This document shows, in pieces, positions 13,046 to 37,511 of a stretch of DNA of 64,000 bases. This DNA is from an uncultured Chlorobiaceae bacterium (GTDB taxonomy: Bacteria; Bacteroidota; Chlorobiia; Chlorobiales; Chlorobiaceae). How positions within the stretch are numbered: the first letter of the stretch is position 1; every line of letters starts with the position of its first letter. Where the stretch lies: contig CAIPMW010000029.1 of the NCBI GenBank assembly GCA_903866255.1, positions 13,689-77,688 on the forward strand, written 5' to 3'. The notes under the pieces were generated by a model, which was not told where the DNA came from, made no database searches, and saw only the letters and a list, made by a program, of their open reading frames with translations. The translations under genes were made by a program, and so were the position numbers.

Positions 13046-15442
13046 ATGGAGCTGAAGAAAAGTGGCGAGCATTCCCCCGAGTTGCAACAGTTGCAGGAAG
13101 AAAACGCTCGCCTGAAAGCCCTCCTGACACTCCATAATATCCCTTGGGATGAACCTGTTGCGATCGAAACACCCTTGCTTTCCCCAGAAGTCTCTTTTCC
13201 ATCCCTCTCACCACGCTCTGCATCGGAAAAGGTTGCTCTCTTTCGCAGCTTTTTTCGTGGACGGAGTGACGTTTACCCACTTCGCTGGGAGTCTGCAAAA
13301 GGCAAGTCCGGGTACGCCCCTGCGTGCGGGAACGAATGGCGCACGGGTGTTTGCCAGAAGCCCCGGATCAAATGTGGAGATTGCAGCAACCGCCAGTTGT
13401 TGCCGCTTGACGAGCAGGTGATCTATCGCCATCTTGAGGGTCGGCATACTGTCGGCATTTTCCCGATGCTGGAGGACGATACCTGCTGTTTTCTGGTGGC
13501 GGATTTTGATGATGATGGTTGGCGAGAAGATGCCGTCGCATTCATGCAATCGTGCAGGGAGTTCACTATTCCTGTGGCGCTGGAGATATCCCGATCAGGT
13601 AACGGTGCTCATATCTGGTTCTTTTTTGCCGATCCGGTACCAGCACGTGAGGCGCGGCAACTTGGCGCATCCCTGATCAGCCACACTTGTGAGCGCACCC
13701 GTCAGCTTGCCATGGGAAGTTATGATCGCTTTATTCCCCTGCAGGATACACTGCCCAAGGGTGGTTTCGGTAACCTGATTGCGCTGCCATTGCAGGGAGA
13801 GCCCCGAAAAAAAGGATTCACTGTTTTTGTTGATGAGAACCTTCTCCCTTACCCGGATCAATGGGAATATCTTGCATCAATTCAGAAAATCTCCCGCTTT
13901 GAACTGGACACAACTCTTTTGAGTGTCAGTGGTGGTCGCCATCCGCTTGATATTGCCTTTATTGCTGAAGAGGATGAAAAGGAGCCTTGGAAACGCTCGT
14001 TACAGCATACCAGCGCGATATCAGGCCCCTTGCCGGAATCTCTCACACTCGTGCTTGGCAATCAGATCTTTATCGCCAAGGCTGATCTCCCGCGAGCGCT
14101 GGCCAACAGCTTGATCCGTCTTGCAGCTTTTCAGAACCCCGAATTTTACAAGGCCCAGGCGATGCGTCGCTCGGTCTGGGAGATACCGCGTGTTATTGGT
14201 TGCGCCGAGAATTTTGCATTGCATATAGGTCTGCCGAGGGGATGCCTTGATGCAGTGACAGGACTGCTCAAACAGCACAATATCAGGGTGACTATTCAGG
14301 AAGAGCGCATCACAGGTTCTGAGATAACGGTCAAGTTTGCCGGTGCGTTGAGAAACGATCAACAAACGGCGGTCAATGCGATGTTGAACCATGAGGTTGG
14401 CATTCTCTCCGCCCCAACGGCATTCGGCAAAACAGTCATGGCTGCGGCGATAATTGCCCGACGAAAGGTAAGCACTCTGATTCTTGTTCATCGTACTGAG
14501 CTGCTTCGCCAATGGCAGGAACGGTTAACCAGCTTTCTGGATCTCTCCGGCATTACTCTTGGCTTGATTGGCGGGGGCAAGAAAAAGCCGACCGGCACTA
14601 TTGATATTGCCGTCATGCAGTCGCTTTCACGGCGTGATGATCTTGCAGAACTTCTCGACCGGTATGGCCAGATTATTGTTGATGAGTGCCATCACCTCTC
14701 TGCTGTCTCATTTGAGGCCATTCTGAAACAAGCCAAAGCAAAATATGTCCTTGGATTAACGGCCACGCCGATTCGCCGCGATGGTCATCAGCCGATCATC
14801 TTCATGCAGTGCGGCCCGGTACGCTACCGTGCGCTTCAGGCCGAAAATGCCCCGGTTAGACTGGAGGTGTGGCCGCTCAACATGCTTGCGCCTCCGATTC
14901 CACCAGAATCTGCTATTCAGGAGCTTTTCTGGATTCTTGCTCACGATGCTGCACGAAACCAGCGCATTGCAGAAGATATTTTGGCGGCATATCGTGAAGG
15001 GCGAAAGATACTTGTGTTGACAGAGCGGACCGAGCAACTGCAACTCTTGCGTGACAATCTTGGAGAACATCTCACCAATATCTTTCTGTTGCATGGGCGG
15101 TTAACCAAAAAACAGCGTTCGGCGACACTTTCGGAGCTGAATGAACTGGATGGTTCAGCTCCACGCATTATTCTGGCGACAGGGCGTCTTATTGGGGAGG
15201 GTTTTGATCATCCTCCTCTTGATACCATGGTGCTCGCTATGCCTATCTCCTGGAAAGGGACATTACAGCAATATGCGGGGCGCCTGCACAGGGAACATGC
15301 CAGCAAGCAGGATGTACGCATTTACGATTACATCGAGCACGATAATGTGCAGCTTGCGCGAATGTGGCAAAAACGCTATCATGGTTATCAGGCAATGGGG
15401 TATCGTGTCAGGCCCCGTCATTTAGAGCTTCAACCATCATAA
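13046..15442 (+). CDS. Archaeo-eukaryotic primase-like domain + SF2 (ResIII/DEAD-like) helicase fusion (TOTE-AEP type)
   Basis: N-term C..W...C..PRIKC.DC Cys cluster, ADFD and SRSGNGAHIW AEP motifs; C-term APTAFGKT, DECHH, GLTAT, TGRLIGEGFD, QYAGRLHR helicase motifs. Confidence 0.85.
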   Translation: MELKKSGEHSPELQQLQEENARLKALLTLHNIPWDEPVAIETPLLSPEVSFPSLSPRSASEKVALFRSFFRGRSDVYPLRWESAKGKSGYAPACGNEWRTGVCQKPRIKCGDCSNRQLLPLDEQVIYRHLEGRHTVGIFPMLEDDTCCFLVADFDDDGWREDAVAFMQSCREFTIPVALEISRSGNGAHIWFFFADPVPAREARQLGASLISHTCERTRQLAMGSYDRFIPLQDTLPKGGFGNLIALPLQGEPRKKGFTVFVDENLLPYPDQWEYLASIQKISRFELDTTLLSVSGGRHPLDIAFIAEEDEKEPWKRSLQHTSAISGPLPESLTLVLGNQIFIAKADLPRALANSLIRLAAFQNPEFYKAQAMRRSVWEIPRVIGCAENFALHIGLPRGCLDAVTGLLKQHNIRVTIQEERITGSEITVKFAGALRNDQQTAVNAMLNHEVGILSAPTAFGKTVMAAAIIARRKVSTLILVHRTELLRQWQERLTSFLDLSGITLGLIGGGKKKPTGTIDIAVMQSLSRRDDLAELLDRYGQIIVDECHHLSAVSFEAILKQAKAKYVLGLTATPIRRDGHQPIIFMQCGPVRYRALQAENAPVRLEVWPLNMLAPPIPPESAIQELFWILAHDAARNQRIAEDILAAYREGRKILVLTERTEQLQLLRDNLGEHLTNIFLLHGRLTKKQRSATLSELNELDGSAPRIILATGRLIGEGFDHPPLDTMVLAMPISWKGTLQQYAGRLHREHASKQDVRIYDYIEHDNVQLARMWQKRYHGYQAMGYRVRPRHLELQPS

Positions 15443-15445
15443 ACT

Positions 15446-15823
15446 ATTGCAGAATAAGGTGAATGGCATCGTAAGGGCGCAACTCTCAGCGATGTTACGG
15501 CACTGAAGGAGTACGGTGTAGACTATACTTTCATTGTGAATGGTATTTCTGCAGGCAAGCTGGCATACCGGGAGGGGAATATGTAGGGCAATCCCTGGTT
15601 GAGGGTATTGAGAGGGCAGTTGGAACAGTTAATCACCGAAAAGTTTGGCGCTGATTATTTGGTGGAGCAAAACCGCCAGACTGAATTGCGGGTGATCAAA
15701 AAAGAGATGACGGTAATGAAGAAGAGATTGAAAGAACTGGAGGCCAGAAAAGCCGAGCTTGAGGTGGCTTTGATGAAGGCGGACATATTGCCTGATGAAG
15801 GTGAAATGGGTTTATCGGTATAA
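15446..15823 (+). pseudogene. Hypothetical coiled-coil protein pseudogene (two in-frame stops, no ATG)
   Basis: Frame reads IAE*GEWHRKGATLSDVTALKEYGV...REGNM*GNPWLRVLRGQLEQ...; TAA 15455-57 and TAG 15584-86; ORF track caught only 15599-15823. Confidence 0.6.
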
Positions 15824-16012
15824 TTTTATTGTGCCATATTTTTGTCCCCAGAACTTCTGCTGTAATAATCATAAAAAAAATGTAAGTTTGATCCGCTGCG
15901 GTATTGAATGCAGCCCAAGAGCAATGGAGTGACGAACAGAGTCACTGTCATGAAACGCATCAACAGGATAGAATAAGTTGTACCAAATCTTTTAGGCAAA
16001 TGGAGACCGAGT

Positions 16013-17962
16013 ATGGCACTGCATGTGTTTGTCGTCATGCCCTTCGGTGTTAAGGGTGGGATTGATTTCGATAAGGTGTACAGCGATTACATTAAACCCG
16101 CATTGGAAGGAGAAGGCTATGAGGTATTCCGTGCGGACGAAGAGCGCCGCGGAGGAGATATTCTGACAGATATGTTCCAAGAGCTCCTTCTGGCTGATTT
16201 GGTTGTAGCAGACCTTTCCATTGATAACCCGAATGTCTGGTATGAACTGGGTGTGCGGCACGCCCTGAGAGCGCGTGGTATTGTGCTCATTCAGACTCAA
16301 CGGAACTATCAGCCTTTTGATATCTATACCAATCGGAAGCTGCAATACCACATTAAAGATAGTATTCCTGATCCGAAATGTATTGAATCAGACAAAACAG
16401 CTCTTGCCAAAATGGCCAGGGAGACGATGGAATCATGGCGTGGACTCAAGATAAGCCCGGTTTATCAGTTGATTCCGAATCTGCAGGAAAACGAGTGGAA
16501 GTCCTTGCGAATGGGCAACGTACGTGAGTTCTGGGAGAAGCATGATGACTGGGAAGTGCGTGTCAAAACTGCACAGAGAAACAGGTATCCGGGAGATATT
16601 ATTGTGCTGGCTGAAGAAGCGCCTGTTCATGTGCTGCAACTTGAAACATATCGCAAGGCTGGAAAATCACTTGCCTTGCTTGGTCAATTTGCTTTTGCCC
16701 GTGAACAGTACAAAAAAGCATTAGCCATAGATTCCGAAGATCTTGAGAGTCAGCAGCAAACAGGGATAATTCTTGGCCGATTACAAAAGTATGTTGAGGC
16801 ACGGGTATATATGGAAAAATTGGTTAATGATAATCCCGGGGACGCAGAGTCGCTTGCACTTCTTGGGCGGGTCGAAAAAGATGCCTGGACAGGGTCGTGG
16901 AGAAAGGAGGGACGGTCAGTAACTGAGATGCAAAAGGAGCCTGTCCGAGCCAAAGCACTCCTTCGGGAGGCGATCAAAGCGTACGCAAAAGCCTTTATAA
17001 TGAAACCGGATCATTATTATTCAGGCATCAATGCAGTAACCCTTATCAGACTTTTGTATCACTTGACTGGAGATGAAAGTATGCTTGCGGAATGCAAGGA
17101 GATGGAGGGGGGCATTCGCTGGACTCTTAAAAGTGCCCTGTCAAAAGAGACCATGCATAACAAAGATTACTGGGCAAGGGTTACACTTGGTGATCTTGAT
17201 CTGCTTGTTTCTGAGCAGAGTATTGTTGAGCAATCATACTGTGATGCCGTTATTGCGGCTGATAACTGGTTCTCTCTCGACTCATCCCGCCAGCAGCTCC
17301 ATCTCCTGCGTGATTTGGGATTTCGCCCCGAAGTGGTTACTTCCGTACTTGATATTTTTGATCACGCCATTGACAAATTTAAAGCTCCGATCAACCCGCG
17401 CCAGGTGTTCCTCTTCAGTGGTCACATGATTGATGCACCAAATCGGCCGACTCCTCGTTTTCCGGCGGAAAAGGAGCCCGTAGCGGCACAAAAAATTGCT
17501 GATGCACTTGATCAACTTGGAGCAGGACCGGGTGATCTTGCCCTTACCCAGGGCGCCTGTGGTGGTGATCTTCTTTTTACGGAAGCCTGTCTGAAACGCG
17601 GGGTGAAGGTGGACTGGTTGCAACCGTTTCACGAAGCTGAATTCATTCAGAATTCTGTTATCTGTTGTGCGGAAGAGTGGCGCAAACGCTATTTTGATGC
17701 GAAGTCGGGACGTGAGGATTCCATTCGATCTGCTCCAGACGCCCTTGGTGAAATGCCATCGGGAGCCAAGCCGGGTTATCCCTACGAGCGCTGCAACCTC
17801 TGGCTTTTTTATACTGCACTCTCCTACGGAATCGACAAGGTGCGCTTTATCTGTTTATGGAATGGTGGTGGAGGCGATGGCCCTGGCGGGACCGCGCACA
17901 TGTATAACGAAGTAATGCAAAGGACAGGGCAGGTAACATGGATAGACACCCGGAAGATATAG
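16013..17962 (+). CDS. Nucleoside-deoxyribosyltransferase-like + TPR (DUF4071/TPR-S-like) + SLOG-like multidomain protein
   Basis: N-term FVVMPF...RADE...ADLVVADLS..NPNVWYELG; TPR-like helices with YSGINA..L and DYW..VTLG; C-term FSGHMID..RFP, GACGGDLLF, W.G..GDGPGGTAHM. Confidence 0.75.
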   Translation: MALHVFVVMPFGVKGGIDFDKVYSDYIKPALEGEGYEVFRADEERRGGDILTDMFQELLLADLVVADLSIDNPNVWYELGVRHALRARGIVLIQTQRNYQPFDIYTNRKLQYHIKDSIPDPKCIESDKTALAKMARETMESWRGLKISPVYQLIPNLQENEWKSLRMGNVREFWEKHDDWEVRVKTAQRNRYPGDIIVLAEEAPVHVLQLETYRKAGKSLALLGQFAFAREQYKKALAIDSEDLESQQQTGIILGRLQKYVEARVYMEKLVNDNPGDAESLALLGRVEKDAWTGSWRKEGRSVTEMQKEPVRAKALLREAIKAYAKAFIMKPDHYYSGINAVTLIRLLYHLTGDESMLAECKEMEGGIRWTLKSALSKETMHNKDYWARVTLGDLDLLVSEQSIVEQSYCDAVIAADNWFSLDSSRQQLHLLRDLGFRPEVVTSVLDIFDHAIDKFKAPINPRQVFLFSGHMIDAPNRPTPRFPAEKEPVAAQKIADALDQLGAGPGDLALTQGACGGDLLFTEACLKRGVKVDWLQPFHEAEFIQNSVICCAEEWRKRYFDAKSGREDSIRSAPDALGEMPSGAKPGYPYERCNLWLFYTALSYGIDKVRFICLWNGGGGDGPGGTAHMYNEVMQRTGQVTWIDTRKI

Positions 17963-19338
17963 CTGATGCCGACAACGTATCGGCATCAACTGCCAGTGCT
18001 GCTCATGTTCGTGCGCCAAAGCGAAATTTTGCATCTCGTCTCTTTGAATACGACATCTTTCTCTCTTTCGCCCTCGGTCCTCCGCCGCGAGGAACGCGTA
18101 GCTATGCTTCAGATCTTGCCCGTCGCCTGAGCGAGCGTGACTTTACAGTTTTCTTCAGCGAGACGGAAGCTGCGCCTGGCGAGCATCTTGACACTACCCT
18201 GCGCACTGCTTTGCATCGTTCAAAATGTCTGGTCGTGATTGCAAATCGTGGGACTTTGAAGGATCCGCGATGGGTGAGCAAGGAGGTTGAGGAATTTCGA
18301 AAGAAGCATCCAAAACGTCCGGTGATTATCATCAATGTTGGTGGAGCGCTTCAAGATCCATTACTTGCATCCAGTGCGCAGGAGTGGCTTGATCAACAGG
18401 AACGGATATGGCTTGACGAGTCGGAAGAGAGTGTGAAAACGGGGATTGTAAGTGAACAGCTTGTTGAACGTCTTGCTACAGCACCAGAAAAAGCCAGATC
18501 GAACGTAAAGTGGCGGCGGCTTGTGGGGGGGGTTCTTGCTTTTTTTTGTATGATGATCATTTTGTTATGGGTTTTGTACAACAAGGAAACCAAAGCGACT
18601 GCCAGTGCCCGTGCCAGTCGCGACTCTACTCGTGCGGCATTGAGGGTGACCAAGGTCGCACGAGATTCTACAGGCAAGGCATTGACTGTGGTCAAGATAG
18701 CACGGGATTCTACTCAAACAGCACTAAAGGATGCCAAAGAGGCGACGAATCGGGCAAATAGTGAAGCAGAACATGCTATGCAACAGACTGTTAAAGCAAA
18801 AGAGGCTCAGAGACAAGCCGAAGTGCTAAGTGAAATAGTCATCAAAGCAGATTCGCCAGATACGCTTCGAAAAATATTTAACAGAGAGGCGAAGTTCCCA
18901 TTCAATAAAAGCGAGTTTGGCAAGCAATATACCGAAGACCTTTTGAAGGCTGTTCTTGTTAAACTCAAGCTTCTTGGTTTTCATGGCAAAATTATATTTG
19001 AGGGTCATGTAGGTGAATTTTATCAGATTAGCCGTAAGGGTGCCCAGAATGGCGAACTCGAGCTCGCCACAAACGAGAAACTGAAGCACTTAAATCGAGG
19101 AGATACTGCGGGGCCAGGTGTAACTAGTGAATGGGCTTTGATGTTTGGGCATAGCTTGGCGGCCACAGTGAAAGAAATCGCGCGTCCTCTCGGGTTGAAA
19201 AATGTACAGACAGTATCTATGGGAGAGGAAAGGCCAATCGTCGAATATCCAAAGAGCAAAAGAGATGCAGATAAATGGAACCGTATTGCGGCACAAAACA
19301 ATTGTGTCTGGATGGTGTTGGATTCTGATACCAAATAA
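17938..19338 (+). CDS. TIR domain - TM helix - coiled coil - OmpA/Pal-like C-terminal domain protein
   Basis: YDIFLSF...LVVI...WVSKEVEEF TIR; hydrophobic LVGGVLAFFCMMIILLWVLY; Ala/Lys-rich coil; C-term F.F.KS...EGHV...VSMGEERP...AQNN.V. Confidence 0.75.
   Translation: MDRHPEDIADADNVSASTASAAHVRAPKRNFASRLFEYDIFLSFALGPPPRGTRSYASDLARRLSERDFTVFFSETEAAPGEHLDTTLRTALHRSKCLVVIANRGTLKDPRWVSKEVEEFRKKHPKRPVIIINVGGALQDPLLASSAQEWLDQQERIWLDESEESVKTGIVSEQLVERLATAPEKARSNVKWRRLVGGVLAFFCMMIILLWVLYNKETKATASARASRDSTRAALRVTKVARDSTGKALTVVKIARDSTQTALKDAKEATNRANSEAEHAMQQTVKAKEAQRQAEVLSEIVIKADSPDTLRKIFNREAKFPFNKSEFGKQYTEDLLKAVLVKLKLLGFHGKIIFEGHVGEFYQISRKGAQNGELELATNEKLKHLNRGDTAGPGVTSEWALMFGHSLAATVKEIARPLGLKNVQTVSMGEERPIVEYPKSKRDADKWNRIAAQNNCVWMVLDSDTK
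18607..18732 (+). repeat. Three degenerate 42-nt (14-aa) tandem repeats, RDST core
   Basis: R-D-S-T codons at 18619, 18661 and 18703, exactly 42 nt apart. Confidence 0.8.
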
Positions 19339-19433
19339 GCTGTGCAATGGTGTCGAGGGAGATTTAGTTCATCGTGCAGTGCTGCGGTCTGCCAATTCCG
19401 CCAGACAAATAACCGCATAATCGCTGATAAACC

Positions 19434-20601
19434 ATGAACGAAAAGCTTGTTGCTCGTTTGCAATCTCCAGGCCCCAAAAGGTTGCTTGCTCTTGATGGTG
19501 GGGGAATACGCGGGGTATTGACACTTGAATTTCTCGAACGTATCGAGGCAATTCTTGCCGGTCGCAGTGGCAAACCTGAACAATTCCGTCTCAGCGATTA
19601 CTTTGACCTTATCGGCGGAACTTCCACTGGTTCTATTATCGCAGCAATGCTTGCCTGTGGTCGCAGTGTGACTGAAATCAAGAAGCTGTATGAAGAGTTG
19701 GCAGAAAAAGTGTTCAAGCGCCGTCTCTGGAGAAGGAGAGGTGTTTTTGTTGCTAAATTTCCCGCAAAGCCGCTTCGTGATGCATTGGAGCTTTATCTTG
19801 GAGAGAAGACTACTCTGGGAAGTGACAAGATTCTGACAGGTCTCATGGTCATGACCAAACGTCTTGATACCGGAAGCCCTTGGCCTTTGCACAATTGTCC
19901 CAACGGCCCATTCTATGATCCAGATCCATGGAATTCCGAGGCCACAGCCAACAAGGATTATTTGCTTGCTGCGATTGTTCGTGCAAGTACCGCCGCGCCC
20001 AGCTTTTTCAAGCCAGAGCGTATCAGTGTTGCAAACAAGCCGAATGGAGAAAAGGTGGATGGTCTTTTTGTCGATGGTGGTGTCAGTCCGTCGAATAATC
20101 CGGCACTCCAGTTACTCATGCTTGCAGCACTCAAAGGTTATGGATTTCTTTGGCCTCTCGGAGCTGAAAATATGTTGTTCGTCTCTGTTGGCACCGGATC
20201 ATTTCCTTTCAAGCTACAATCCTGCAAAGTGGTTGCACAAACTTCCAGCCAATGTAGCACTCTACTCGTTGAAGGGGCTTATAGACGACTGTGATAATTT
20301 TGCCCAGACCATGCTCCAGTGGATGGCACAAACCACAACCCCATGGATGATCGACAGTGAAATCGGCAATCTGCGTAGTGATCAGCTTGGTCGAGAAGAG
20401 TTGATTACCTACTTGCGCTATAATGTGAAATTTGACGAGCATTGGCTGCAACAGAATTTTAAAAAGGGTTTCAACAAAGCGAAGGTCAAGGAGTTTGAAG
20501 AGATGGATAAGTTTGCAAACATTGCTGAACTCTCAGTTGTGGGTCGAAGGTCCGCACAGGTACAGGTACGTGAAAGCCACTTTCCGAGCTCTTTTGACTA
20601 A
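19434..20601 (+). pseudogene. Patatin-like phospholipase split by a +1 frameshift
   Basis: DGGGIRG, GGTSTG, VDGGV motifs in the 19434 frame; C-terminal third (TTPWMIDSEIG, YLRYN, EMDK) continues in the 19864 frame after about 20200-20230. Confidence 0.85.
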
Positions 20602-20636
20602 TCGTAGACTCTATCCGCTCAAACAAAAAGAAGATT

Positions 20637-21383
20637 ATGACCCCATTTGCTCTGAACGACGTTTCGATTTATGTTGAAGCGAGCATCGGCACCTTGAACC
20701 AGAAAAGAGTAACTGTTCTTAAAACATTGAGCCTTTCCGAACTGCTGAAACAACAAAATCCATATCGCTTGAGTTTAAAACCTGCTCAGACAATCACCGA
20801 TATTGTCAAAGGGCTGGTTGATGCCCATATCTCGTCAAACGAGGAGACTGTTTTTGGTGACTGGCTGGAGGGGCTGGCCATATTTATCAACGGCAAGGTT
20901 TATGGTGGCTGGAAATCCGGTATTCCCGGAGTCGATCTTGAGTTTGACAACGATGGGAAGCGCTTCATCGTCAACATCAAATCAGGCCCGAATTGGGGAA
21001 ACGGCAGTCAGATTGCCAAGATGAAGTCCGACTTCAAAACAGCGGCAAAAACTCTTCGCACCAGTAATTCAGGGATTCAGGTTGTTGCGGTCAATGGATG
21101 CTGTTACGGAAAGAGCAATACTCCCGATCAGGGCGACTATTTCAAATACTGTGGTCAGACCTTTTGGGAGTTTATCTCGTCAGATCCAAATCTTTACACC
21201 GACCTTATCGATCCATTGGGGCACACAGCAAAGGAGAGAAATGATGAATTTTGTCACTCTTATGCGCAGATGATCAACAAGTTTACTCAGCAATTTGGTG
21301 TGGAGTATTGTGAGGCCAACGGAGCAATTAACTGGAAAAAGCTGGTAGAGTTCAACTCGTCCGCAGGAAGGTGGTCTCAATAG
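20637..21383 (+). CDS. Type II restriction endonuclease-like protein (PmeII/EcoO109I-like)
   Basis: SSNEETVFGDWLEGLAIF, GVDLEF, IKSGPNWGN.SQI, NGCCYG, KYCGQ.FWEFIS motifs recalled for this family. Confidence 0.75.
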   Translation: MTPFALNDVSIYVEASIGTLNQKRVTVLKTLSLSELLKQQNPYRLSLKPAQTITDIVKGLVDAHISSNEETVFGDWLEGLAIFINGKVYGGWKSGIPGVDLEFDNDGKRFIVNIKSGPNWGNGSQIAKMKSDFKTAAKTLRTSNSGIQVVAVNGCCYGKSNTPDQGDYFKYCGQTFWEFISSDPNLYTDLIDPLGHTAKERNDEFCHSYAQMINKFTQQFGVEYCEANGAINWKKLVEFNSSAGRWSQ

Positions 21384-21724: not shown

Positions 21725-23503
21725 TTAGTCCACGCTCGCCCTTCTCAACACCACACTGAACACCGAACCGTGGTTGAGGCGTGAGCGAACCTCAATGTCG
21801 CCTTTGTGGGCCAGGACAATATGCTTGACAATCGAGAGCCCGAGGCCGGTGCCGCCGTGCTGGCGTGAGCGTGCCTTGTCCACTCTGTAAAAGCGCTCGA
21901 AGATGCGGTCGAGATCCTGCTTCGCTATGCCGATTCCGTTATCTTCAATCTCTAACCGAACATCATCTCCACTTCTGAACGCTGTAATTCTGATTCTGCC
22001 ATTGCTATTGTCTAGATATTTGATAGCATTGTCGAGGAGGTTGCGGATAACAATGTCGAGATAACGGGCATCGGCATAAACGGGGGGGAGTTCCCTGGCT
22101 ATCTTGATATCCAGCCTGATCTGTTTTTTTTCAAGAGAGGGCTTCAGCAGATCAACCGATTTCATAAGAACACCGGCAAGGTCAACAGGTGCGAATTGGT
22201 AATCAATGTATCCAGATTCAATTTTGGAGAGGTCAAGCACGTCGTTGACGAGTGCCGTGAGCTGTTTGCTTGCCTGCAAGATTATTTTCAGGAATGGTGT
22301 TGCATGTTTTGGATCGTCCATGGCCCCTTCGAGCAAGGTTTCTGTATAGCCACTGATGACTGTCAGCGGAGTACGGAGTTCGTGTGACACACCGGAGACA
22401 AAATCACGCCGTATTTTTTCGAGGTTGCGGAGCTTTGTGATATCGTTCAGGACAAAAACGCTCCCTTCGAATTGGTTCTCTTTTAAGAGTGGCATGGAGC
22501 TGATCTGCATGATGCGTTCACCTTTTGTGGTCATCAGCGACATCTCCTCTTTACGCAAGGTGATATGGGTAGTGTGAACTCTTATAAACAGCTCCTGAAG
22601 CTTGTTATCCGAAAGTTGCCTGATCGGACGTGATTTGAACATGGCGCCATCAATCCGGAACATTCTCGATGCTGCGGGATTGACAAGAATGATGTTGCCG
22701 GAGGCATCGGTGACAATGATTGCTTCACGGATGCCCGAAAAAACAGCCTGATACCACTCCTCACTGCGTCGCATTGTTGTTATCTCATCAGCCATCCCTG
22801 TGATAGCACGTGCAATCGTTCCAATTTCATCGTGACGTTGGAAGAGGGAGGTGTTTACTGAAAAATAACCATCTTTGTTGTGTTTTATTGTTTCGGCAAG
22901 CGTGCTGAGTGGGCGGGCAAGAAGAAAGCTTGCAAGAATACCTGCGATAATGGATAACATGAGAGCAGGCAAGAGGGCCAGTGCGATCTCTTTCTCAACT
23001 CCACTCTCAAACAATTCAATATCATAGAGCGGTTTGCTGAATCGAAGGATAGCGCAGGGCTTGGGTATTCCAACAGGAACTGCCATATAGAGTGAATACT
23101 CTTGTACCGTTTGGCTGAAACGGGTATTCTCTCCATATCCCTTTTCAAGCGCTGCTTTTACCTCAACTCTTTGACGGTGGTTCTTAACAGTGGAAAGCTT
23201 TTCCTGTGGAACTGAAGAGTCAGAGAGTACCCTGCCGTCAAGATCAATCAGGGTAACCCGGATATCAAGTGTTCGTCCGATCTGCTTTATCCACGCATTG
23301 GTACGAGGCGTTGTTTTCCACCCCTCCGGCTGTTGTTGAAGTATCTGTCTGCTGAGCAGAAGATCTCGTTGAAGCTCTTGTTTTGTTGCTGTGGAGACTA
23401 TTTCTCTCAAGGTATCGCTGATTGAGAAAGAGCTGATGAGCATGGCACAAAAAACAATCAATCCGGTAGCAATACCAAATCTGAACGAGAGTTTAACCTG
23501 CAT
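21725..23503 (-). CDS. phoR: PhoR-type sensor histidine kinase (HAMP-PAS-HisKA-HATPase)
   Basis: [51 protein letters not shown]. Confidence 0.88.
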
Positions 23504-24257
23504 GGTGGTCACCTGGCAATTCAAGCAGCGCTCTCACCTCTTCCCAGAGGTTCCGGTAGGCTTTTGAGGCTGGAGAGTTTGGCAGAACCGCATTGAGTGG
23601 CGAACGGTAGATACCCATCTTTTCAACTTCAGAGTTGTAGGGAATCGTTTGGGAGAGAAAGCCGGGAGTATTGCGGAATTCGTCGAGGATATCGCGATGC
23701 AGCTTTTTCTGTTTTTCGACCATGGAAAAAAATGGGCGTATTTTAGAGCTATCGAGTTTGTTGGCTTCAAAAAACTCTTTCAACTGAGTGAAGGTGCGCA
23801 TGGACAATGTTGTGGGAATCAATGGCACCAGAATAATATCGGAGGCGGCAAAGACACTTTCAGAGAGAAGTGTCAGGTTTGGCGGGCAGTCAAGAAAGAT
23901 AAACTGGTAGTCGTCACTCAGCTCTCCAAGGTTTTTTTTGAGTTTTTTTTGAGGTTTTTTCTCATCGGCGAGTTCGATGTCGAGATTTCTGTACGAAAAG
24001 TCGGAGGGAAGCATGTCAAGGTTCTCAAAATCGGTTGCCTTGATATTGCGGTATATCTTTTTGTTTCCCTTGAGAAATTTGTCGCTGTTGAACTTTTTGG
24101 ATGCGGCAATCCTGAAATAGAAAGAGCTTGCCCCTTGGGGATCAAGGTCGCAGATCAGGGTTGGGGGCGAGAGCTGGGAAGAGAGCCAGGAGAGGTTGAC
24201 CGCCGCCGCCGTTTTGCCGACACCACCCTTGATGCTGTAAAGCGCTATTGTCTTCAT
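23493..24257 (-). CDS. ParA/Soj-family ATPase (orphan)
   Basis: Deviant Walker A KGGVGKT, DLDPQG, Walker B FLDCPP. Confidence 0.92.
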
Positions 24258-25816
24258 GTCGGAGTACAGGTTAAAAGATCGTGAAAGAGCTGGCTTGTCT
24301 CTTTGTGGTCAAATGAACTGAAGGTTGTATGAAATTTGAGGCGAGCAGCTTCCTGTTTCTGAAAGAGAGTTGTCATCAGTCCGCCTGTTGACGCAGCAAG
24401 TAACTTCTCTTCAGCCATTGTTGCAAGTTGTTCATGAAGAAAGTGGAGTTGAACGGCAAAATCAACAAAGTCACCAAGATTGTCCTGCAACTCTTTCAGT
24501 TGTCGGATTACTGGAGTGATGGTTTCTGACGGAAAAATTGAGAAAAAAAATTCAAGCAGATAGCGGAGTTTTTTACAATCAATCCGGAGAGCATGAAGCT
24601 CTTCATCAGTTGTTGCCCTGCTGATCCGCCGGCCATGGTGAATTACTTTTTTCCACGCTTTTCTGATATTTTCAACGGCAACCTCTTTTGTTGAACAGAA
24701 AGCATTTGGGGCTTGTTCAACATCAGGAAGTGCTTCATGATTGATGAATACCTCCCACTCTTTCAGAGATGAATGATAGTCGCGGGACGACAGATAATGG
24801 CAGAATTGTTTGTGCAATGGTTTGCGGGATGCTGCAATGTTTCGGAAAAAGAGCCTCAGAGATGGCTGCAGAAACGGAGGCAGATAGTTGAAATAGCTCT
24901 CCTTCCTGAGCAGATAGACATCCCTGTCGCGTAATTCGTTTGTTCGTTTGCCAAGATCCCTGAAGAGATTGAGGAAATAGATGGTTTCCCTGGAGTCAAA
25001 TACTCCCTGAAGCTGCTTCATAACCGAACGTGTCCGGCGTATGGCTACCCGATAATCGTGCAGAAACTCTGAATCAATATCTTTTTTTATACCCTTTTCA
25101 TTCAGTCGCATGACTGAACAGGTGAATTGTAAAAGTTGTCTGGCGCTTTCGTGAATGGGGGCATCAGGGTTGAGGGTAAGCATTATTTTTGCCGAATAGC
25201 CTTGAACGTTATGCCCGGCTTCACGCATGATCAACAGAAAGTACTCTCGGACATCAAGGGTAGTGGTTACTTCATCAAGGGTTGAAAACGATAGCGCAAC
25301 AGGAGTCATCTCATCCTCGTATCCCCTGAGAGGCGACAGAGAAAAGAGGTGGAGAAATGGTTCCTGGCTCTTGTTGTCCGCAATGTATAGTGATTCAGAG
25401 GTCAGGATCGCGACAGTTTTGTTGTTATCGTCAATAATACGGTGTGAATAACTGATTGCATCCAGCGTACAAAGTCTTGAAAATGCCCTGATATTGCTGC
25501 ACAAAGAGAGTTTTTCTCTAGCTGTTGAAGGGGGAAGAGCGTCCCAAAAAAAGGAGGTGAATGTATTGGAAAATGGCTCCGAGGTGATCCTCAGGCCGGT
25601 ATTGAGGTCGACAAGAAAAAGAGTTCCCTTTTTTTTTATTATCGCAACTTTTTTTTCAAAAGCCTGCCACTCAAAGGTGTCATAATACTCTCTTTGCTCT
25701 TTCGATGAAGAAACTGTTTTAAGTTTGAATCCTGTGAGAATTATTTTTTCAGATAGTTCCTCCAAAGAAATGGTACGGTTCAATCTGAAAGAGAGTGTTT
25801 TCGGGTTTGGAAGCAT
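24254..25816 (-). CDS. CHAD-domain protein with CYTH-like N-terminal region
   Basis: [38 protein letters not shown]; N-term YYDTF.W. Confidence 0.88.
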
Positions 25817-25828
25817 CGGTCTCCTGTG

Positions 25829-26491
25829 TCAGGTTGACTTGTTCAGCATGTCAATAATGTCGTCAGGGTGCCGGGCGAGGGCTTTTGCACCGTATGCAAG
25901 AAGCTCGCTTTCAGGTCGGAATCCCCAGAGTACGCCGAGTGGGAACATCCCCGCCCTTGTGGCGGTCAGCATATCTATGCCACTGTCCCCCACATATAGA
26001 ATTGATGAAGGCTCTACTCCAAGCATGCGGGCAACAAGGAGTGCGCCTGCCGGATCAGGTTTGTGAGCTATACCGCTGTGATGACCCATGACGACGTCGA
26101 AAGTCCACTTTTTAAGAAGCTCATCTGCACAGAGACGGGTAAAGTGATCAGCTTTATTTGAGAGAATAGCCATGATTATCCCTTTTTCGGTAATCGTGTC
26201 AAGCAGCGTATTGATGCCAGGATAGGGGCGTGAACAGACGTTCCAGTGGTCGGCATAGTGCGCTAAAAAGTCAGGAAGCAAGCGATTGATGGTCTCCTCG
26301 GTACCAATTCCTGCAGGAAGCGCTTTCCGTACCAGTTCACTCATTCCATGCCCGACAAGAAACTTGCACTTTTCGATCGTATGCACCGGATAACCATGCC
26401 GATCAAGTACGGTATTGAGCGTATTGAGAAGATCCTGCAGCGTATCGAGCAACGTTCCGTCAAGATCAAAGATAACAGCTTTGAAGGCCAT
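25829..26491 (-). CDS. HAD-family phosphatase (phosphoglycolate phosphatase-like)
   Basis: FDLDGTL, SNK, HKPDP, YVGDS.ID motifs. Confidence 0.92.
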   Translation of the reverse strand: MAFKAVIFDLDGTLLDTLQDLLNTLNTVLDRHGYPVHTIEKCKFLVGHGMSELVRKALPAGIGTEETINRLLPDFLAHYADHWNVCSRPYPGINTLLDTITEKGIIMAILSNKADHFTRLCADELLKKWTFDVVMGHHSGIAHKPDPAGALLVARMLGVEPSSILYVGDSGIDMLTATRAGMFPLGVLWGFRPESELLAYGAKALARHPDDIIDMLNKST

Positions 26492-26590: not shown

Positions 26591-26815
26591 CTACTTTTTT
26601 GGTGCAATGGCTGATGATGCGCCCTGCAACACCTGTCCAATGGTATTTGATGCACTTCCAACAAGGTCAATTGCTGTCTTCGCCAGAGGCTCTACAACCT
26701 GGCCAACAGCTTTGACACCGGCGCTCAACAAGTCAACCTGCTGCTGGGCCAGCTTGCCAGCCGTATCAAAAAGGGCGCTTACTGCCGAAGAAAGATCGTT
26801 CGTTTCGTTTGCCAT
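26591..26815 (-). CDS. csmB: Chlorosome envelope protein, CsmB/CsmF family
   Basis: 74 aa, Ala/Val/Gly-rich amphipathic, VEPL.KTA.DLVGS and SSAIAPKK ending; own terminator. Confidence 0.8.
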   Translation of the reverse strand: MANETNDLSSAVSALFDTAGKLAQQQVDLLSAGVKAVGQVVEPLAKTAIDLVGSASNTIGQVLQGASSAIAPKK

Positions 26816-27114: not shown

Positions 27115-28278
27115 ATGGCTGGAGAGAGTGTCGGTGAGAGCAACCGGTCGAATGCTTTTGTGATGAGCGCCCGGAAACGAACAATGCAGAAGATTGCGCA
27201 AATAGCAGGGGAGTCTGTACTCTTTTCCGTTGCTGCGTTTGTTGCTGTCATTGTCCTTTTTATCTTTTATTTCGTGACGCGGGATGCAGTTCCTTTTTTC
27301 CAACTTCGAGGATTCAGTGAATTTTTCACCAGTTCGAACTGGTATCCGGCTGATGAACCAGGACAATTTGGTGCTCTTGCCATTATTTACGGTAGTTTGA
27401 TGGTGACGCTTGGTTCCGCCATCATTGCTGTGCCCATGGGTGTTGCAGCGGCAATATGCCTGAGTGATATTCTTCCCTTTTCAGTAAGACAGTATGCCAA
27501 ACCTGTCATTGAAATGCTTGCGGCTATTCCTTCGGTTGCCTTCGGCTTTTTTGCACTTGTTGTATTGGCTCCTCTTATGCAGAACAGTGGTGGTCCGATG
27601 CTTATGTGGGCCTGGTGGATTCTTGTTTCGCCATTTCTGCTTCTGGCCGTCATTGTTGGCTCTGATCTTTTGACTGCATCAATCAAGGAGGAAAAACGTC
27701 GTCAGCAACTCTATGTGCTCTTGCTTATTCTTTTTGGCCTGATTGCTGTTGTTCTTTTGTTCAAGGTTGGTTCTGTGCTCAACGGCATCCAGATTCTTAC
27801 CGGAACAAATGCTCTTAACGTCTCGATTATTCTGAGCTTCATGGCTCTTCCAACGATTGTCAGTGTCTCTGAAGATGCCCTTCAGGCTGTTGGGCGTGAC
27901 ATTCGTGAGGGAAGTTACGCCCTGGGAGCGACAAGGGCAGAAACAATTATCAAGACGATTCTTCCAGCGGCAAGCAGCGGCATTCTTGCAGCGGTTATTC
28001 TCGGAGTTATGAGAGCTCTTGGTGAAACGATGGTGGTCTGGATGGCTTCGGGCAACTCTTCTCATATTCCTGAGCCATGGTTCAACTATCTCGAAGCTAT
28101 TCGTACCCTGACCGCAACGATTGCCGGTGATATGGGCGAAGCTGATCAGGTAACGGGATCAGCCCGTTTTCATGTCCTTTTCGCGATGGGTCTTTTACTG
28201 CTGATTATCAGCTTTATCAGTAATCTGGTGAGTGAGAGAATTGTTGTTCGTCAGCGAAAAATACTCTCCGGCCAGTAA
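27115..28278 (+). CDS. pstC: Phosphate ABC transporter permease PstC
   Basis: FFTSSNWYP, EMLAAIPSV.FGFF, SYALGATR.ET, RALGETM. Confidence 0.93.
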   Translation: MAGESVGESNRSNAFVMSARKRTMQKIAQIAGESVLFSVAAFVAVIVLFIFYFVTRDAVPFFQLRGFSEFFTSSNWYPADEPGQFGALAIIYGSLMVTLGSAIIAVPMGVAAAICLSDILPFSVRQYAKPVIEMLAAIPSVAFGFFALVVLAPLMQNSGGPMLMWAWWILVSPFLLLAVIVGSDLLTASIKEEKRRQQLYVLLLILFGLIAVVLLFKVGSVLNGIQILTGTNALNVSIILSFMALPTIVSVSEDALQAVGRDIREGSYALGATRAETIIKTILPAASSGILAAVILGVMRALGETMVVWMASGNSSHIPEPWFNYLEAIRTLTATIAGDMGEADQVTGSARFHVLFAMGLLLLIISFISNLVSERIVVRQRKILSGQ

Positions 28279-28305
28279 TATGTTTTTCCATTAAACCTTT
28301 TGTTT

Positions 28306-29652
28306 ATGAATATTGGCACAAGGAAAATACTCGATCGTTCATTTACCGCTGTTGGTGTTGGATCAATCATTGTTATGGCATTGGCTCTTATGATTGTTGT
28401 TGTGCCAATTGTCTCGAATGGTATAGGTGCCATAATTTTTACGGGTACGATTGAGCACCGCAAGATGTTGCGCACTGAATTCCAGAGGGGTGACGTTCAA
28501 AATCTTGCAAGCGAGGTTGCCTCATCAGAACGATATCGGGCGAGGCTCTACGAGATACTCAACACCTTTGAGGGTGAACTTGAGACAATGGCCCCGGAAA
28601 AAAAGAGGGAGTATAAGTCACAATATTTACAGGTAAAAACAGCTCTTCAGGCTCTGTTAGGTCCATTGCCTGGTGACTCCGCGCCAATGCTGACCAGATT
28701 TAAATATGGCCAGACACGATGGGAAAAGGCGGAGGAGAAGTTGCATGAACTGCTTTATGAGTCAAAATGGGATAACTCAAATGCAGATATTATGGGCAAA
28801 GAGTACTTTGTGAGTAGGGCGAAAGCTTTTGAAGGCACCTCGCTTGCCCCCATGTTTCCCTACGTAAAAACTAATATCAGGAAGATGCTTCTCCCTGAGT
28901 TTACTGCCTATTGGGGATTTATTACGGACAGCTCGGTTGATTCGCACTTTTTCGGAGGTATCTGGCCGGAAATCCAGGGAACGTTTTTTCTTGCCATGGG
29001 TGCTATGCTTTTTGCATTTCCCCTTGGTGTTGTTGCTGCGGTCTATTTTACTGAATATGCCAAACCCGGGTTTTTAAATAGCATGCTCCGCAGTGCCAAC
29101 AGTACCCTTGCCGGCGTGCCAAGTATTGTCTTTGGAATGTTTGGTCTGGCCTTTTTTATCAACACAATGAGAGTCTCTGAATCAAAAAGTGTGATTGCCG
29201 GTTCACTGACACTGGCGATCATGATTTTACCGACTATCATACGTGCAGCGGAAGAGGCAATTCTGTCTGTCCCAAAAACCTACAGGGAGGCATCGCTCAG
29301 TCTTGGTTCCACTAAATGGAATACTATTGCGACAGTTATTATTCCGGCAGCGCTTCCCGGGATTCTTACTGGCGGGGTTATAAGTCTTGGCAGGGCAGCC
29401 GGGGAGACCGCTCCGATTATTTTTACTGCTGCAGTCAGTGTTGGCTCGGCTATAGGTCTTGCTGATGTTTTTTCGTCACCGACGCCAGCCCTCTCCTGGA
29501 ACATCTATAACCTTGCCAGTGAACATGAGGCGGCTGCGCAAATACGTCATGTCCAGTATGGCATGGTGCTTGCGCTGGTCACTATTGTATTGTTATTGAA
29601 CCTTTCAGCGATAGTACTGCGTGCTCGAATTTCAAAAAAATTGAAAGGCTAA
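28306..29652 (+). CDS. pstA: Phosphate ABC transporter permease PstA with large periplasmic insert
   Basis: GGIWP..GT, LAGVPSIVFG, EASLSLG.TKW, RAAGETAP. Confidence 0.93.
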   Translation: MNIGTRKILDRSFTAVGVGSIIVMALALMIVVVPIVSNGIGAIIFTGTIEHRKMLRTEFQRGDVQNLASEVASSERYRARLYEILNTFEGELETMAPEKKREYKSQYLQVKTALQALLGPLPGDSAPMLTRFKYGQTRWEKAEEKLHELLYESKWDNSNADIMGKEYFVSRAKAFEGTSLAPMFPYVKTNIRKMLLPEFTAYWGFITDSSVDSHFFGGIWPEIQGTFFLAMGAMLFAFPLGVVAAVYFTEYAKPGFLNSMLRSANSTLAGVPSIVFGMFGLAFFINTMRVSESKSVIAGSLTLAIMILPTIIRAAEEAILSVPKTYREASLSLGSTKWNTIATVIIPAALPGILTGGVISLGRAAGETAPIIFTAAVSVGSAIGLADVFSSPTPALSWNIYNLASEHEAAAQIRHVQYGMVLALVTIVLLLNLSAIVLRARISKKLKG

Positions 29653-29683
29653 CAACTTATAATTATTAAAGACTACTGATGTA

Positions 29684-30523
29684 ATGACAACTTCAGAAAG
29701 TGCGTCAGCAAAGAAAGCAACACGAGATATCTATCTGCCTCCTGAACGAAAAATGGTGGCAGGTGGGGGAGCGGCTCATATTGCAGCTAAAAATTTTTCT
29801 GTCTACTACAGTGAGTTTGAAGCGGTGAAAAAGGTCAGTGCGGATATTCTTTCGAAATATGTGACAGCCATTATCGGGCCGAGTGGATGTGGCAAGAGCA
29901 CCTTTTTGCGTGCTATAAACCGTATGAATGACCTTATTCCATGCTGCCACACCTCCGGTTCACTCCTGTTTGATGGTGAGGATATTTATGGAAAATATAC
30001 CGATGAGGTGCTGCTCCGCAAAAAGGTGGGGATGGTGTTCCAGAAACCAAACCCCTTTCCAAAATCTATTTTTGACAATATCGCTTACGGCCCTCGTTTG
30101 CATGGGGTGAGCGACAAGAAAAAGCTTATGGAGATTGTCGAGCGGAGCCTTAGAAAAGCAGCAATATGGGATGAGGTGTGCGACCGTCTCGACAAGAATG
30201 CGCTTGGGCTGAGCGGCGGACAGCAGCAACGGCTCTGCGTGGCCCGAACTCTTGCTGTTGAACCTGATGTGCTTTTGCTTGACGAGCCAACCTCAGCGCT
30301 TGATCCGAAAGCTACAGCAAAAATCGAGGATCTGATTCAGGAGCTGCGCGGCAGTTATACCATTATGATTGTAACGCACAATATGCAACAGGCATCAAGA
30401 GTGTCGGATTCCACTATGTTTTTTTACGAGGGTGTTCTTGTTGAGCATGCCTCTACGGCACAACTTTTCACTAATCCAAAAGATCCGATGACTGAAGATT
30501 ACATCACCGGAAGATTCAGCTAA
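29684..30523 (+). CDS. pstB: Phosphate ABC transporter ATPase
   Basis: [43 protein letters not shown]. Confidence 0.97.
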
Positions 30524-30543
30524 CGAAACCATCGTCAAGAATA

Positions 30544-31260
30544 ATGTCATCACGCCCGGTCCATGAGCTTATCAAAGAACTCTCAATGGTTCTTGTCCAG
30601 ATCTCGGACAAAGTTGTAGGAAACTTGTATAACGCACTTTATGCTGTCAAGCATCAGGATGAGCAGGGTGCTCGTCAGATAAGAATTGTCGATCAGGAGA
30701 TTGACGTGGCAGAGGTGACCCTCGAAGAGCGTTGTTTGGCATTTCTTGCCCTCCAGCAGCCAGTTGCAAGAGATCTCCGAACCATTATCACCATTATAAA
30801 GATTAACGACGACCTTGAACGCATTGGCGATCTTGCGGTACATATTATTGACCGTATGCCTGAAATCAGTCCTGAAATGCTTGAATCTTTCTCTTTTGAA
30901 GATATGGGCATGCAGGCCGGTGATATGGTGAAGAAATCCATTGAGGCATTTATCTCAAAAGATCGGATGCTTGCCGATGAGGTGTGTGCACTTGATGAAG
31001 GGATTGATGTGATGCACCGCTCGGTCTTCAAAAAGGTAACTGCATTAATGAAAAGTCCTGATTCTGATGTTGATCAGCTTATTGCCGCGCTCAGCATCTC
31101 AAGGTATATCGAACGTATGGCTGATCACGCATCAAGAATAGCTCATGAAGTCATCTATCTGGTTACCGGAGAGATTGTTCGCCATAGTGGGGGATTTTAC
31201 GAAAAGCTTATAGAATCAATTAACACGGATAATTCATCGGAGCACCACACAGGGGTATGA
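30544..31260 (+). CDS. phoU: Phosphate signalling protein PhoU
   Basis: QQPVARDLR, DLERIGDLA, YIERMADHA repeats. Confidence 0.95.
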   Translation: MSSRPVHELIKELSMVLVQISDKVVGNLYNALYAVKHQDEQGARQIRIVDQEIDVAEVTLEERCLAFLALQQPVARDLRTIITIIKINDDLERIGDLAVHIIDRMPEISPEMLESFSFEDMGMQAGDMVKKSIEAFISKDRMLADEVCALDEGIDVMHRSVFKKVTALMKSPDSDVDQLIAALSISRYIERMADHASRIAHEVIYLVTGEIVRHSGGFYEKLIESINTDNSSEHHTGV

Positions 31261-36744: not shown

Positions 36745-36755
36745 GTTTGAACCCT

Positions 36756-37487
36756 ATGGCTACATTGTTAGGAAAATTTTTCGGTGATGCACCGAAAACC
36801 GCCGAAACCCCGCAAGCTTTTACCATCAAAATTGATCCAGTCAAGTTCTCCCTTTCCACGAAACCCCAGGGGACTGTTTTCGTACAGCTTGAATCACTCA
36901 AGCAGAAGCTCACCAAACTATCGTCCAATGTCGAAAATAACCTGATGCTCAGCATTCGAGCCTCAACCAAGGGAAATGTTGAACTTGCATCATCGGCCTT
37001 CAAATTTGATGAGGCCTATATCCGAAAAGGAAAATTTGAGGTTGAATATCTTACGGTAGCATACTCCTCTTTTCAGAATCTTGGCACAGAGGATCTCAAG
37101 GCAATCAAATATGCGAGGATGATTCTCAAGGATCTTGAACGGCTGGCCCAGTTGGCGCTCAATATTGCTGACAAGGCCGAGTATGTGCGGTTTGCAAATG
37201 TTGAGGATCTGCACAAGGACGAGTACGGTTTGAAGCCTATGGGCGATATAACGGCAGAAATGATCAAGAAATCGGTTGAAGCCTATGTGAGCAGCAATTC
37301 TAAACATGCCAGTGAAACCCTTGTAATGATGACTGAAATCCAGTCTCTTTACGATGCTGCTGTTGCAAAGATAGAGTCATCAGTGAACGATCAGAATATT
37401 ACCAACCTTACCGGCATTCTTTCCATTGTTGAACATATAAAGGCTTCAGCGGATATTTCCTGTTCTATTGCCAGTAATTTCTGCTGA
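36756..37487 (+). CDS. Divergent PhoU-like protein
   Basis: EDLKAI...LKDLERLAQLALNIA matches first PhoU repeat; MIKKSVEAYV; second repeat degenerate. Confidence 0.65.
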   Translation: MATLLGKFFGDAPKTAETPQAFTIKIDPVKFSLSTKPQGTVFVQLESLKQKLTKLSSNVENNLMLSIRASTKGNVELASSAFKFDEAYIRKGKFEVEYLTVAYSSFQNLGTEDLKAIKYARMILKDLERLAQLALNIADKAEYVRFANVEDLHKDEYGLKPMGDITAEMIKKSVEAYVSSNSKHASETLVMMTEIQSLYDAAVAKIESSVNDQNITNLTGILSIVEHIKASADISCSIASNFC

Positions 37488-37511
37488 AGAGAATAAAGAC
37501 TTACCCGAAGA

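Follow-up and report, generated by a model that had tools for sequence, protein, structure and literature searches.

A gene pair encoding a polyphosphate (polyP)-binding CHAD protein and a ParB-less ParA/MinD-family ATPase lies on the minus strand of a 64,000-nt stretch of contig CAIPMW010000029.1 from an uncultured Chlorobiaceae bacterium (the whole of this stretch is termed the window), and is presented here, on the strength of comparative sequence analysis, as a strong candidate for polyP granule organising machinery. Across phyla the two genes are linked and co-inherited, often with translational coupling, the ATPase is a dedicated paralog that has its motifs intact and no ParB, and its partner carries a CHAD domain shown by orthology to CtCHAD of Chlorobaculum (Chlorobium) tepidum to be a polyP-binding module. 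An earlier reading of the same DNA, here called the original prediction, had proposed that a HAD-CHAD-ParA-PhoR operon positions polyP granules; the gene cluster is real, however its four genes do not form a conserved unit and only the CHAD-ParA pair recurs. Our best reading is that the pair forms an ATP-driven system that positions or organises polyP granules, a reading that is unproven and that we consider evenly balanced between right and wrong.

A CHAD Protein Orthologous to CtCHAD

The C-terminal part of the window CHAD protein (residues 207-516) matched the C. tepidum CHAD structures PDB 3E0S, 6QV7 and 6QVA at 1e-103 in a phmmer search, and PF05235 scored 174.5 bits vs a gathering threshold of 25.6. 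One C. tepidum locus (L126) codes for a protein of 522 aa that is identical to the crystallised chains over residues 207-522; it is thus the CtCHAD locus, and the window protein is an ortholog of CtCHAD (Q8KE09). CtCHAD was reported to bind polyP, its complex with a polyP 9-mer was solved, long polyP was found to make it oligomerise, and binding was weakened by mutating H253, R256, R260, R296, R385, K386, K389, K390, R438 and K441 (PMC6537752). The window protein has all ten of these contact residues unchanged and numbered alike, which gives the earlier claim of a polyP-binding partner a direct footing. In the full-length AlphaFold model (pLDDT 89) the CHAD domain superposes on 6QVA with TM 0.95 and a root-mean-square deviation of 1.5 A, and the CHAD-domain model, with TM 0.94-0.97 to 3E0S, 6QV7 and 6QVA, has the fold of two four-helix bundles and the basic polyP surface. 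CHAD phosins were placed at polyP granules in vivo in Ralstonia, according to the account of Tumlirsch and Jendrossek (2017) given in PMC6537752, and the CHAD protein of the window organism would presumably coat granules as well.

The N-terminal 206 residues, which the original prediction overlooked, form a degenerate CYTH/TTM domain. The published CtCHAD construct consists of residues 207-522 and omits the 206 residues before them (PMC6537752). Pfam and NCBIfam searches gave no match for this domain of the window protein, PF01928 (CYTH) failing even at E <= 10 and matching one of 17 homologs at 1.8e-5, and the TTM fold surfaced by structure prediction only. The N-domain model (pLDDT 85.4) forms an eight-stranded tunnel, for which Foldseek returned YgiF (5A60), thiamine triphosphatases, CyaB, SaTTM and AtTTM3 (probability 1.0, TM 0.45-0.55); as modelled, the window protein is a YgiF-like TTM+CHAD protein. 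Its first strand reads SFRLN where EXEXK is expected, and the motif is missing in all but one of the 17 aligned homologs (the homolog at L019 reads EIKLE at this strand); to judge from these residues, the TTM domain of the window protein is probably not a triphosphatase. Identity to C. tepidum is 34% in the N-domain vs 54% in the CHAD domain and 71% in the ParA, indicating that the N-domain evolves much faster. We propose it as a ParA-facing or phosphate-end-binding module, and it is the likeliest part of the CHAD protein to face the ParA.

A Separate Clade of ParA-like ATPases

The window ParA contains SIKGGVGKT (K10, K15), D37-L-D39-PQ and FLD123CPP, which together make a complete set of deviant Walker A, A' and B motifs, and K10, G11-G14, K15, D37, D39 and D123 are invariant across a subfamily alignment of 52 members. 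An exhaustive search retrieved 361 cluster representatives at E <= 1e-30, with the genome's own Soj at merely 7e-20, and phylogenetic analysis placed the subfamily in one clade apart from ordinary ParA/Soj (SH-aLRT 100, stem length 1.89). The original prediction had read IPYN where Soj has IPRN and taken this as a hint of a distinct subfamily; both points were borne out, and the substitution of 'IPY' turned out to be a general mark of the clade. At the column of the Soj arginine the window protein has Tyr207, and the commonest residues across the 52 members are Y (28), F (7), M (4) and L (3), Lys or Arg accounting for 2%, vs Arg in 55 of the 62 ordinary ParAs compared. We take position 207 to be the equivalent of Soj R189, reportedly required for DNA binding. 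The basic positions 195 and 210, conserved in ordinary ParAs, are also lost, and eleven new conserved basic positions are gained; clade-specific basic residues lie at 49, 90, 154, 184, 213 and 218. The mean net charge of the clade is +6.6 vs -3.5 for ordinary ParAs (p = 1e-5), and the isoelectric point is 8.9 for the window ParA vs 4.8 for the genome's Soj.

In total the genome holds two ParA-like genes and one CHAD gene. The second ParA gene encodes a canonical Soj (…IRRNVKLSEAPS…), and the sole ParB gene of the genome comes directly after it on contig C45; no ParB was found next to clade members or in the window, as had been noted for the window before. Family models for known systems fell short of their cut-offs on the window ParA, namely NF041546 for ParABS-type ParA (67 bits vs 180), TIGR01968 for MinD (22 vs 213) and TIGR03371 for BcsQ (69.6 vs 157.9), and neither bcs genes near the locus nor carboxysome genes in the window were seen. 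The C-terminus is unlike even that of close relatives (…EELHSVLEKNN). Databases label this protein 'chromosome partitioning protein'.

Conservation of the CHAD-ParA Pair

Within the Chlorobiaceae, CHAD is the gene directly upstream of the clade ParA, in the same orientation and in many cases overlapping it by 4 nt, at 43 of 49 loci (20/20 thirteen-kb loci and 23/29 short loci), and the published CtCHAD gene is itself directly followed by a ParA of the clade. In six Chlorobium genomes the genes are unlinked, yet both are kept, the long CHAD gene being found on a different contig. Of 71 Chlorobiaceae genomes, 70 have the ParA in single copy, none of ten sister-family genomes has it, and the one Chlorobiaceae genome that lacks it is also without CHAD. 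A similar pattern was seen in the Desulfobulbales-type order holding L016 (Desulfocapsaceae), where 11 of 13 ParA loci have CHAD directly upstream and where, among 61 genomes (12 with ParA), ten have both genes, two ParA only, two CHAD only and 47 neither (p = 4.5e-8; the Fisher tests used here treat related genomes as independent, thus their p-values are indicative only).

Using a generic P-loop pattern, we scanned contigs and obtained at least about 20 clade members, and the 61 ordinary ParAs among the matches listed served as a control. Outside the Chlorobiaceae, 16 clade loci were compared, taken from genomes and metagenomes and including Thermodesulfobacteriota, Actinomycetota and Alphaproteobacteria. 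Ten of them have a TTM-like/CHAD gene of 513-563 aa abutting the ParA start (in Thermodesulfobacteriota, Ilumatobacteraceae, Microthrixaceae, Acidimicrobiales, Rhodothalassium, Rhodospirillaceae and further assemblies), vs CHAD at 0/61 ordinary ParA loci among the matches listed (Fisher p = 7e-9, indicative as above). In one more, from Methylophaga, the gene directly upstream of the clade ParA is ppk1 in place of CHAD. The neighbourhood of CHAD-adjacent ParAs had been named as a check on the original prediction, and the linkage proved to be kept across phyla far beyond chance.

TTM domains recur both in the CHAD partner and fused to the ParA itself, in a clade of ParA-CYTH fusions of about 510-540 aa that keep EXEXK in four of the eight inspected. 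Two other apparent fusions were also considered. The 'CHAD-ParA fusion' P0228 was discounted as a likely frameshifted pair, its CHAD match ending at profile position 132 with about 80 non-homologous residues next, and the ParA-S6PP/HAD fusion P0121, known from one 2.3-kb contig covered about 2.6-fold, was counted as weak evidence.

Genes of polyP and phosphate metabolism recur around the pair. In Chlorobaculum (genus g2, CtCHAD locus included) the order is HAD-ppk1-(273-aa repeat protein)-CHAD-ParA, ppk2 occurs at two clade loci and a Na/Pi cotransporter at one, and further recurrent neighbours are SixA-type phosphatases (His_Phos_1), metallophosphoesterases and NUDIX proteins. A conserved folD-ppk-parA-CHAD order was reported in Acidithiobacillus, where the ParA was interpreted as a partition protein (PMC10892726; PMC6416229). 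As a separate observation, SixA-type His_Phos_1 genes stand directly beside CHAD-ParA in two unrelated lineages (L016:7744-8247 and L007:7597-8106), the one at L016 overlapping the ParA stop codon.

A Young Operon among Phosphate-Regulon Genes

The four linked minus-strand genes of the original prediction, with a 12-nt gap, an ATGA overlap and an 11-nt overlap between them, were found exactly as described. Read from the sequence, the HAD-CHAD junction is the 12-nt gap cacAGGAGaccg with a ribosome-binding site inside, CHAD and ParA share the ATGA, and ParA overlaps phoR by 11 nt given a PhoR start at ATG 23503, a start matched by the N-terminus of a relative's PhoR ortholog (the longest open reading frame begins at TTG 23524). 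A hairpin with a T-run, GCACCCTGTGC-AGAAC-GCACAGGGTGC-TTTTTTT, was recognised by eye upstream of HAD and is not among the listings of our terminator scan of the region; it closes the upstream 74-aa open reading frame, thus HAD opens a new transcription unit.

Conservation of the four genes as a unit was rejected, as the adjacency of PhoR, HAD and pst is lineage-specific. The PhoR-like kinase scored just under the cut-offs of both PnpS (377 bits vs 400) and TIGR02966 PhoR (291 vs 334), and in four relatives its orthologs lie directly 3' of an OmpR-type phoB. Among nine other Chlorobiaceae genomes checked, PhoR follows ParA directly in only one, the closest relative (ParA 90% identical). Another relative (G040) has the order CHAD-ParA-phoA (alkaline phosphatase)-phoB-phoR, with phoA and phoB at L159:11892-14148, and in the other seven PhoR is far from ParA or on a different contig, phoB being directly upstream of phoR in all three of those genomes' loci examined. 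Both phoA and phoB are absent at this locus in the window genome and its closest relative, where phoR comes to overlap parA. The G040 arrangement is likely ancestral, and the ParA/phoR overlap of the window likely arose through loss of the alkaline phosphatase and phoB. In this genome the Pho sensor (phoR) and regulator (phoB) are on different contigs. We also observed that contig C116 (800-14000) of the same genome holds phoB (814-1509), a phoU paralog, ppk1 and a second pstCAB set, and that contig C84 holds an additional ppk1 copy.

As for HAD, membership of the superfamily (PF13419) is evident and the protein resembles phosphoglycolate phosphatase and PpaX, with the equivalog models (phosphoglycolate phosphatase, PpaX, MupP) far under their cut-offs. 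It directly adjoins CHAD only in the window, ppk1 and another gene intervening in Chlorobaculum, and a homolog was present at one non-Chlorobiaceae locus only, 5 kb off, so that HAD was rejected as a general partner. As for the pstC-pstA-pstB-phoU cluster (whose PhoU scored 195 bits with TIGR02135, over the cut-off), it lies away from CHAD-ParA in the other Chlorobiaceae inspected. The window operon is therefore real but evolutionarily young, and it speaks for an expression tied to phosphate in this lineage alone; gene order places the CHAD-ParA pair under the phosphate regulon in this species, as a recent and local feature that stands outside the mechanism.

How Could the Pair Act on PolyP Granules?

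Under the positioning reading, the 520-aa protein would coat polyP granules through its long CHAD domain as a cargo adaptor, with its dead TTM/CYTH domain, or an N-terminal tail, turned towards the ParA of the adjoining downstream gene. The ParA would form ATP-sandwich dimers, as expected from its complete set of deviant Walker motifs, on a polyanionic surface, most simply the nucleoid, and ATP hydrolysis would be stimulated by the partner on the granule. On the pattern of McdAB, ParABS and PomXYZ, this may space the cell's few granules, hold them apart and give each daughter cell a share. In green sulfur bacteria a cell forms no more than three polyP granules (Hughes 1963, as relayed in PMC11269200), a low-copy regime in which active partitioning matters.

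Several points weigh against this reading. Both the role of the clade ParA in granule position and its contact with CHAD are inferred. Since ordinary-ParA basic residues are lost at 195, 207 and 210, nucleoid binding cannot be assumed, and the ParA-CYTH fusions, in which the ATPase would be permanently joined to a domain that binds phosphate, are more easily reconciled with a tether or enzyme complex than with a ratchet that cycles freely. Linkage is not obligatory, as shown by the six Chlorobium genomes with the genes apart, the p-values for it count related genomes as independent, and orphan clade ParAs exist in Bacteroidota, some Gammaproteobacteria and sphingomonads; in four of ten orphan-ParA genomes, some being metagenome-assembled, no CHAD was found. 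Elsewhere, polyP spacing needs no ParA in Synechococcus elongatus (PMC13081873) and is tied to AlgP in Pseudomonas aeruginosa (PMC9239181).

Another account lets the ParA act on the granule rather than move it: ATP dimers would use polyP as their matrix and, together with TTM/CHAD, control nucleation, coalescence, size or surface remodelling. We see in it a real though minor possibility, to which the oligomerisation of CtCHAD on long polyP (PMC6537752) lends support, as do the natural ParA-CYTH fusions, in which the ATPase is tethered to a tunnel that binds (poly)phosphate. The missing DNA-binding arginine of the Soj type, the re-patterning of conserved basic positions and the positive net charge of the clade point the same way, however basic charge equally suits DNA binding and the present data fit either polymer. 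Nor is there a known ParA/MinD protein with an inorganic polymer for its matrix. A sharper version, in which the clade ParA would assemble ATP-bound dimers on polyP instead of DNA or membrane, with the dead TTM domain as an ATPase-activating, polymer-end-binding adaptor and, in some lineages, a live TTM domain fused to the ParA, strikes us as unlikely.

The ParA-like protein could also be a non-spatial regulatory or assembly ATPase of polyP or phosphate metabolism, gating PPK/PPX or passing polyP status to PhoR. HAD and TTM domains would then be enzymatic partners, in keeping with neighbours such as PPK1, PPK2, HAD, His_Phos_1, metallophosphoesterase and NUDIX proteins, with the overlap of the ParA gene with phoR in the window, and with the several ParA-CYTH fusions that have an intact EXEXK and the one ParA-S6PP/HAD fusion. 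We find this quite unlikely: the adjacency of PhoR, HAD and PPK is in each case lineage-specific and leaves CHAD as the sole constant partner, the deviant Walker A with its signature lysine is a hallmark of dimerising positioning or assembly ATPases and not of metabolic kinases, and the ParA-S6PP fusion comes down to one thinly covered short contig. That the adjacency means nothing, the ParA being a leftover or auxiliary DNA-partition ATPase that came to lie beside CHAD by chance, is hardly credible. ParA genes are common and mobile, the database annotation suggests partitioning and the Acidithiobacillus papers took the same view; however the genome's one ParB sits by Soj on another contig, the pair is conserved in several phyla and shows translational coupling, co-loss and fusions, and CHAD stands at none of the 61 ordinary ParA loci among the matches listed. 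Chance adjacency of CHAD and ParA is thus effectively excluded.

Features of the Window

The coordinates of the operon and of other features are summarized in Table 1. The 74-aa open reading frame upstream of HAD had zero Pfam or NCBIfam matches; it may be similar to small chlorosome envelope proteins of the CsmB/CsmF type. Directly downstream of phoR lies an apparent defence island (13046-21383, plus strand) that is unrelated to the operon, and no methylase adjoining its EcoO109I-type endonuclease was identified in the list of open reading frames. Further along, within 36747-41725 on the plus strand, the gene for a divergent PhoU-domain protein of 246 aa (TIGR02135 69 bits, under the cut-off) immediately precedes an RND efflux pair (HlyD-type 37512-38606, AcrB-type 38603-41725), which is an unusual pairing.

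Table 1. Positions in the window of the operon carrying the CHAD-ParA pair and of surrounding features.
Feature	Position	Strand	Remarks
HAD-IA phosphatase, 220 aa	26491-25829	-	PF13419 112.7 bits; first gene of operon
TTM-like/CHAD protein, 520 aa	25816-24254	-	PF05235 174.5 bits; candidate cargo adaptor
N-terminal domain, residues 1-206	25199..25816	-	CYTH/TTM fold without EXEXK
Long-type CHAD domain, residues 207-520	24254..25198	-	polyP-binding module by CtCHAD orthology
ParA/MinD-family ATPase, 254 aa	24257-23493	-	PF13614 115 bits; CHAD-linked clade
PhoR-like sensor histidine kinase	23503-21725	-	Cache-like, PAS, HisKA, HATPase domains
HAD/CHAD spacer, 12 nt	25817..25828	-	AGGAG within, read from sequence
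Hairpin and T-run	about 26566-26533	-	5' limit of operon; read by eye
pstC-pstA-pstB-phoU	27115..31260	+	Pfam; divergent from operon; phosphate-regulon context, outside conserved module
74-aa Ala/Val/Gln-rich open reading frame	26591-26815	-	starts MANETNDLSSAVSALFDTAGKLAQQQ, ends APKK; strong terminator hairpin 3'
TOTE-type AEP primase-helicase	13046-15442	+	defence island
TPR-S protein	16013-17962	+	defence island
TIR-domain protein	17938-19338	+	defence island
Patatin phospholipase	19434-20294	+	defence island
EcoO109I-type restriction endonuclease	20637-21383	+	defence island

Significance and Comparison with Known Systems

Placement and inheritance of polyP granules are an acknowledged open question, and the CHAD-ParA pair offers a concrete, deletable gene pair with which to address it. 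A 2026 preprint described the positioning mechanism as undefined in E. coli and Caulobacter, with a spacing that "resembles" ParA-mediated patterns (PMC13081873). A ParA system for polyP granules, whether proposed or tested, was not found in the literature searched, and a survey of ParA-like NTPases mentions neither CHAD nor CYTH (bioRxiv 10.64898/2026.10.19.760177). What the present analysis contributes is the direct tie to CtCHAD, the history of the phoR-parA overlap and the recognition of a ParA behind the published CtCHAD gene. The partner already has a polyP-bound crystal structure, and in C. tepidum, a genetically tractable organism, the pair is clustered with ppk1. It is present in Microthrixaceae (Microthrix being a phosphorus-removing wastewater organism) and in the order of the Desulfocapsaceae genome. 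It has also been reported in Acidithiobacillus (PMC10892726). If the positioning reading is true, the ParA/MinD family would gain a new class of cargo and possibly a new matrix, and the long TTM-CHAD phosins would be assigned a function; if polyP itself were the matrix, this would be the first machine of the family patterned on an inorganic polymer.

Among known systems, McdA/McdB shares with the pair a ParB-less ParA-type ATPase gene beside a cargo-bound partner, a low-copy cytoplasmic inclusion as cargo, and the expected logic of an ATP dimer on a matrix with stimulation by an adaptor. However, in place of the disordered McdB the pair has a folded TTM-like/CHAD protein that binds an inorganic polymer, and the window ParA keeps the signature lysine, forms part of its own clade and matches McdA in the PDB at only 1e-9. 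Soj-ParB-parS shares the ATPase fold and motifs, and the best PDB matches were generic ParA/Soj proteins (1e-16 to 1e-11), yet the CHAD locus has neither ParB nor parS and the equivalent of R189 and two further basic positions are lost. On the partner's side, CtCHAD and the phosins (Ralstonia PptA/PptB, Streptomyces PptA) are comparable through the orthologous CtCHAD domain with its identical polyP-binding residues, and the phosin literature examined does not describe phosins as partners of an ATPase. E. coli YgiF has the same TTM+CHAD layout, 5A60 aligning over both domains (E 2.6e-9), but the window TTM domain is without EXEXK.

With respect to the cellular problem of spacing polyP granules evenly on the nucleoid, a comparable case is AlgP of Pseudomonas aeruginosa (PMC9239181), which differs in being a histone-H1-like protein and no ATPase, and the window protein is without an AlgP-like tail. 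A side observation concerns Rhodothalassium salexigens, whose TTM/CHAD protein (L011:5169-7004) ends in a C-terminal tail of about 70 aa that is rich in Lys, Ala and Pro and that, as we read its composition, is like histone-H1/AlgP-type tails. PomXYZ of Myxococcus and the cargo-tethering ParA systems of the ParC/ParP type are alike in that a large assembly other than DNA is tethered and moved over the nucleoid by a ParA-like ATPase; their partners are not homologous to those described here, and they may serve as a model for the behaviour of the ParA-CYTH fusions. Taken together, the CHAD-ParA module is best classed as a new cargo with a new adaptor within the known ParA/MinD cargo-organising systems.

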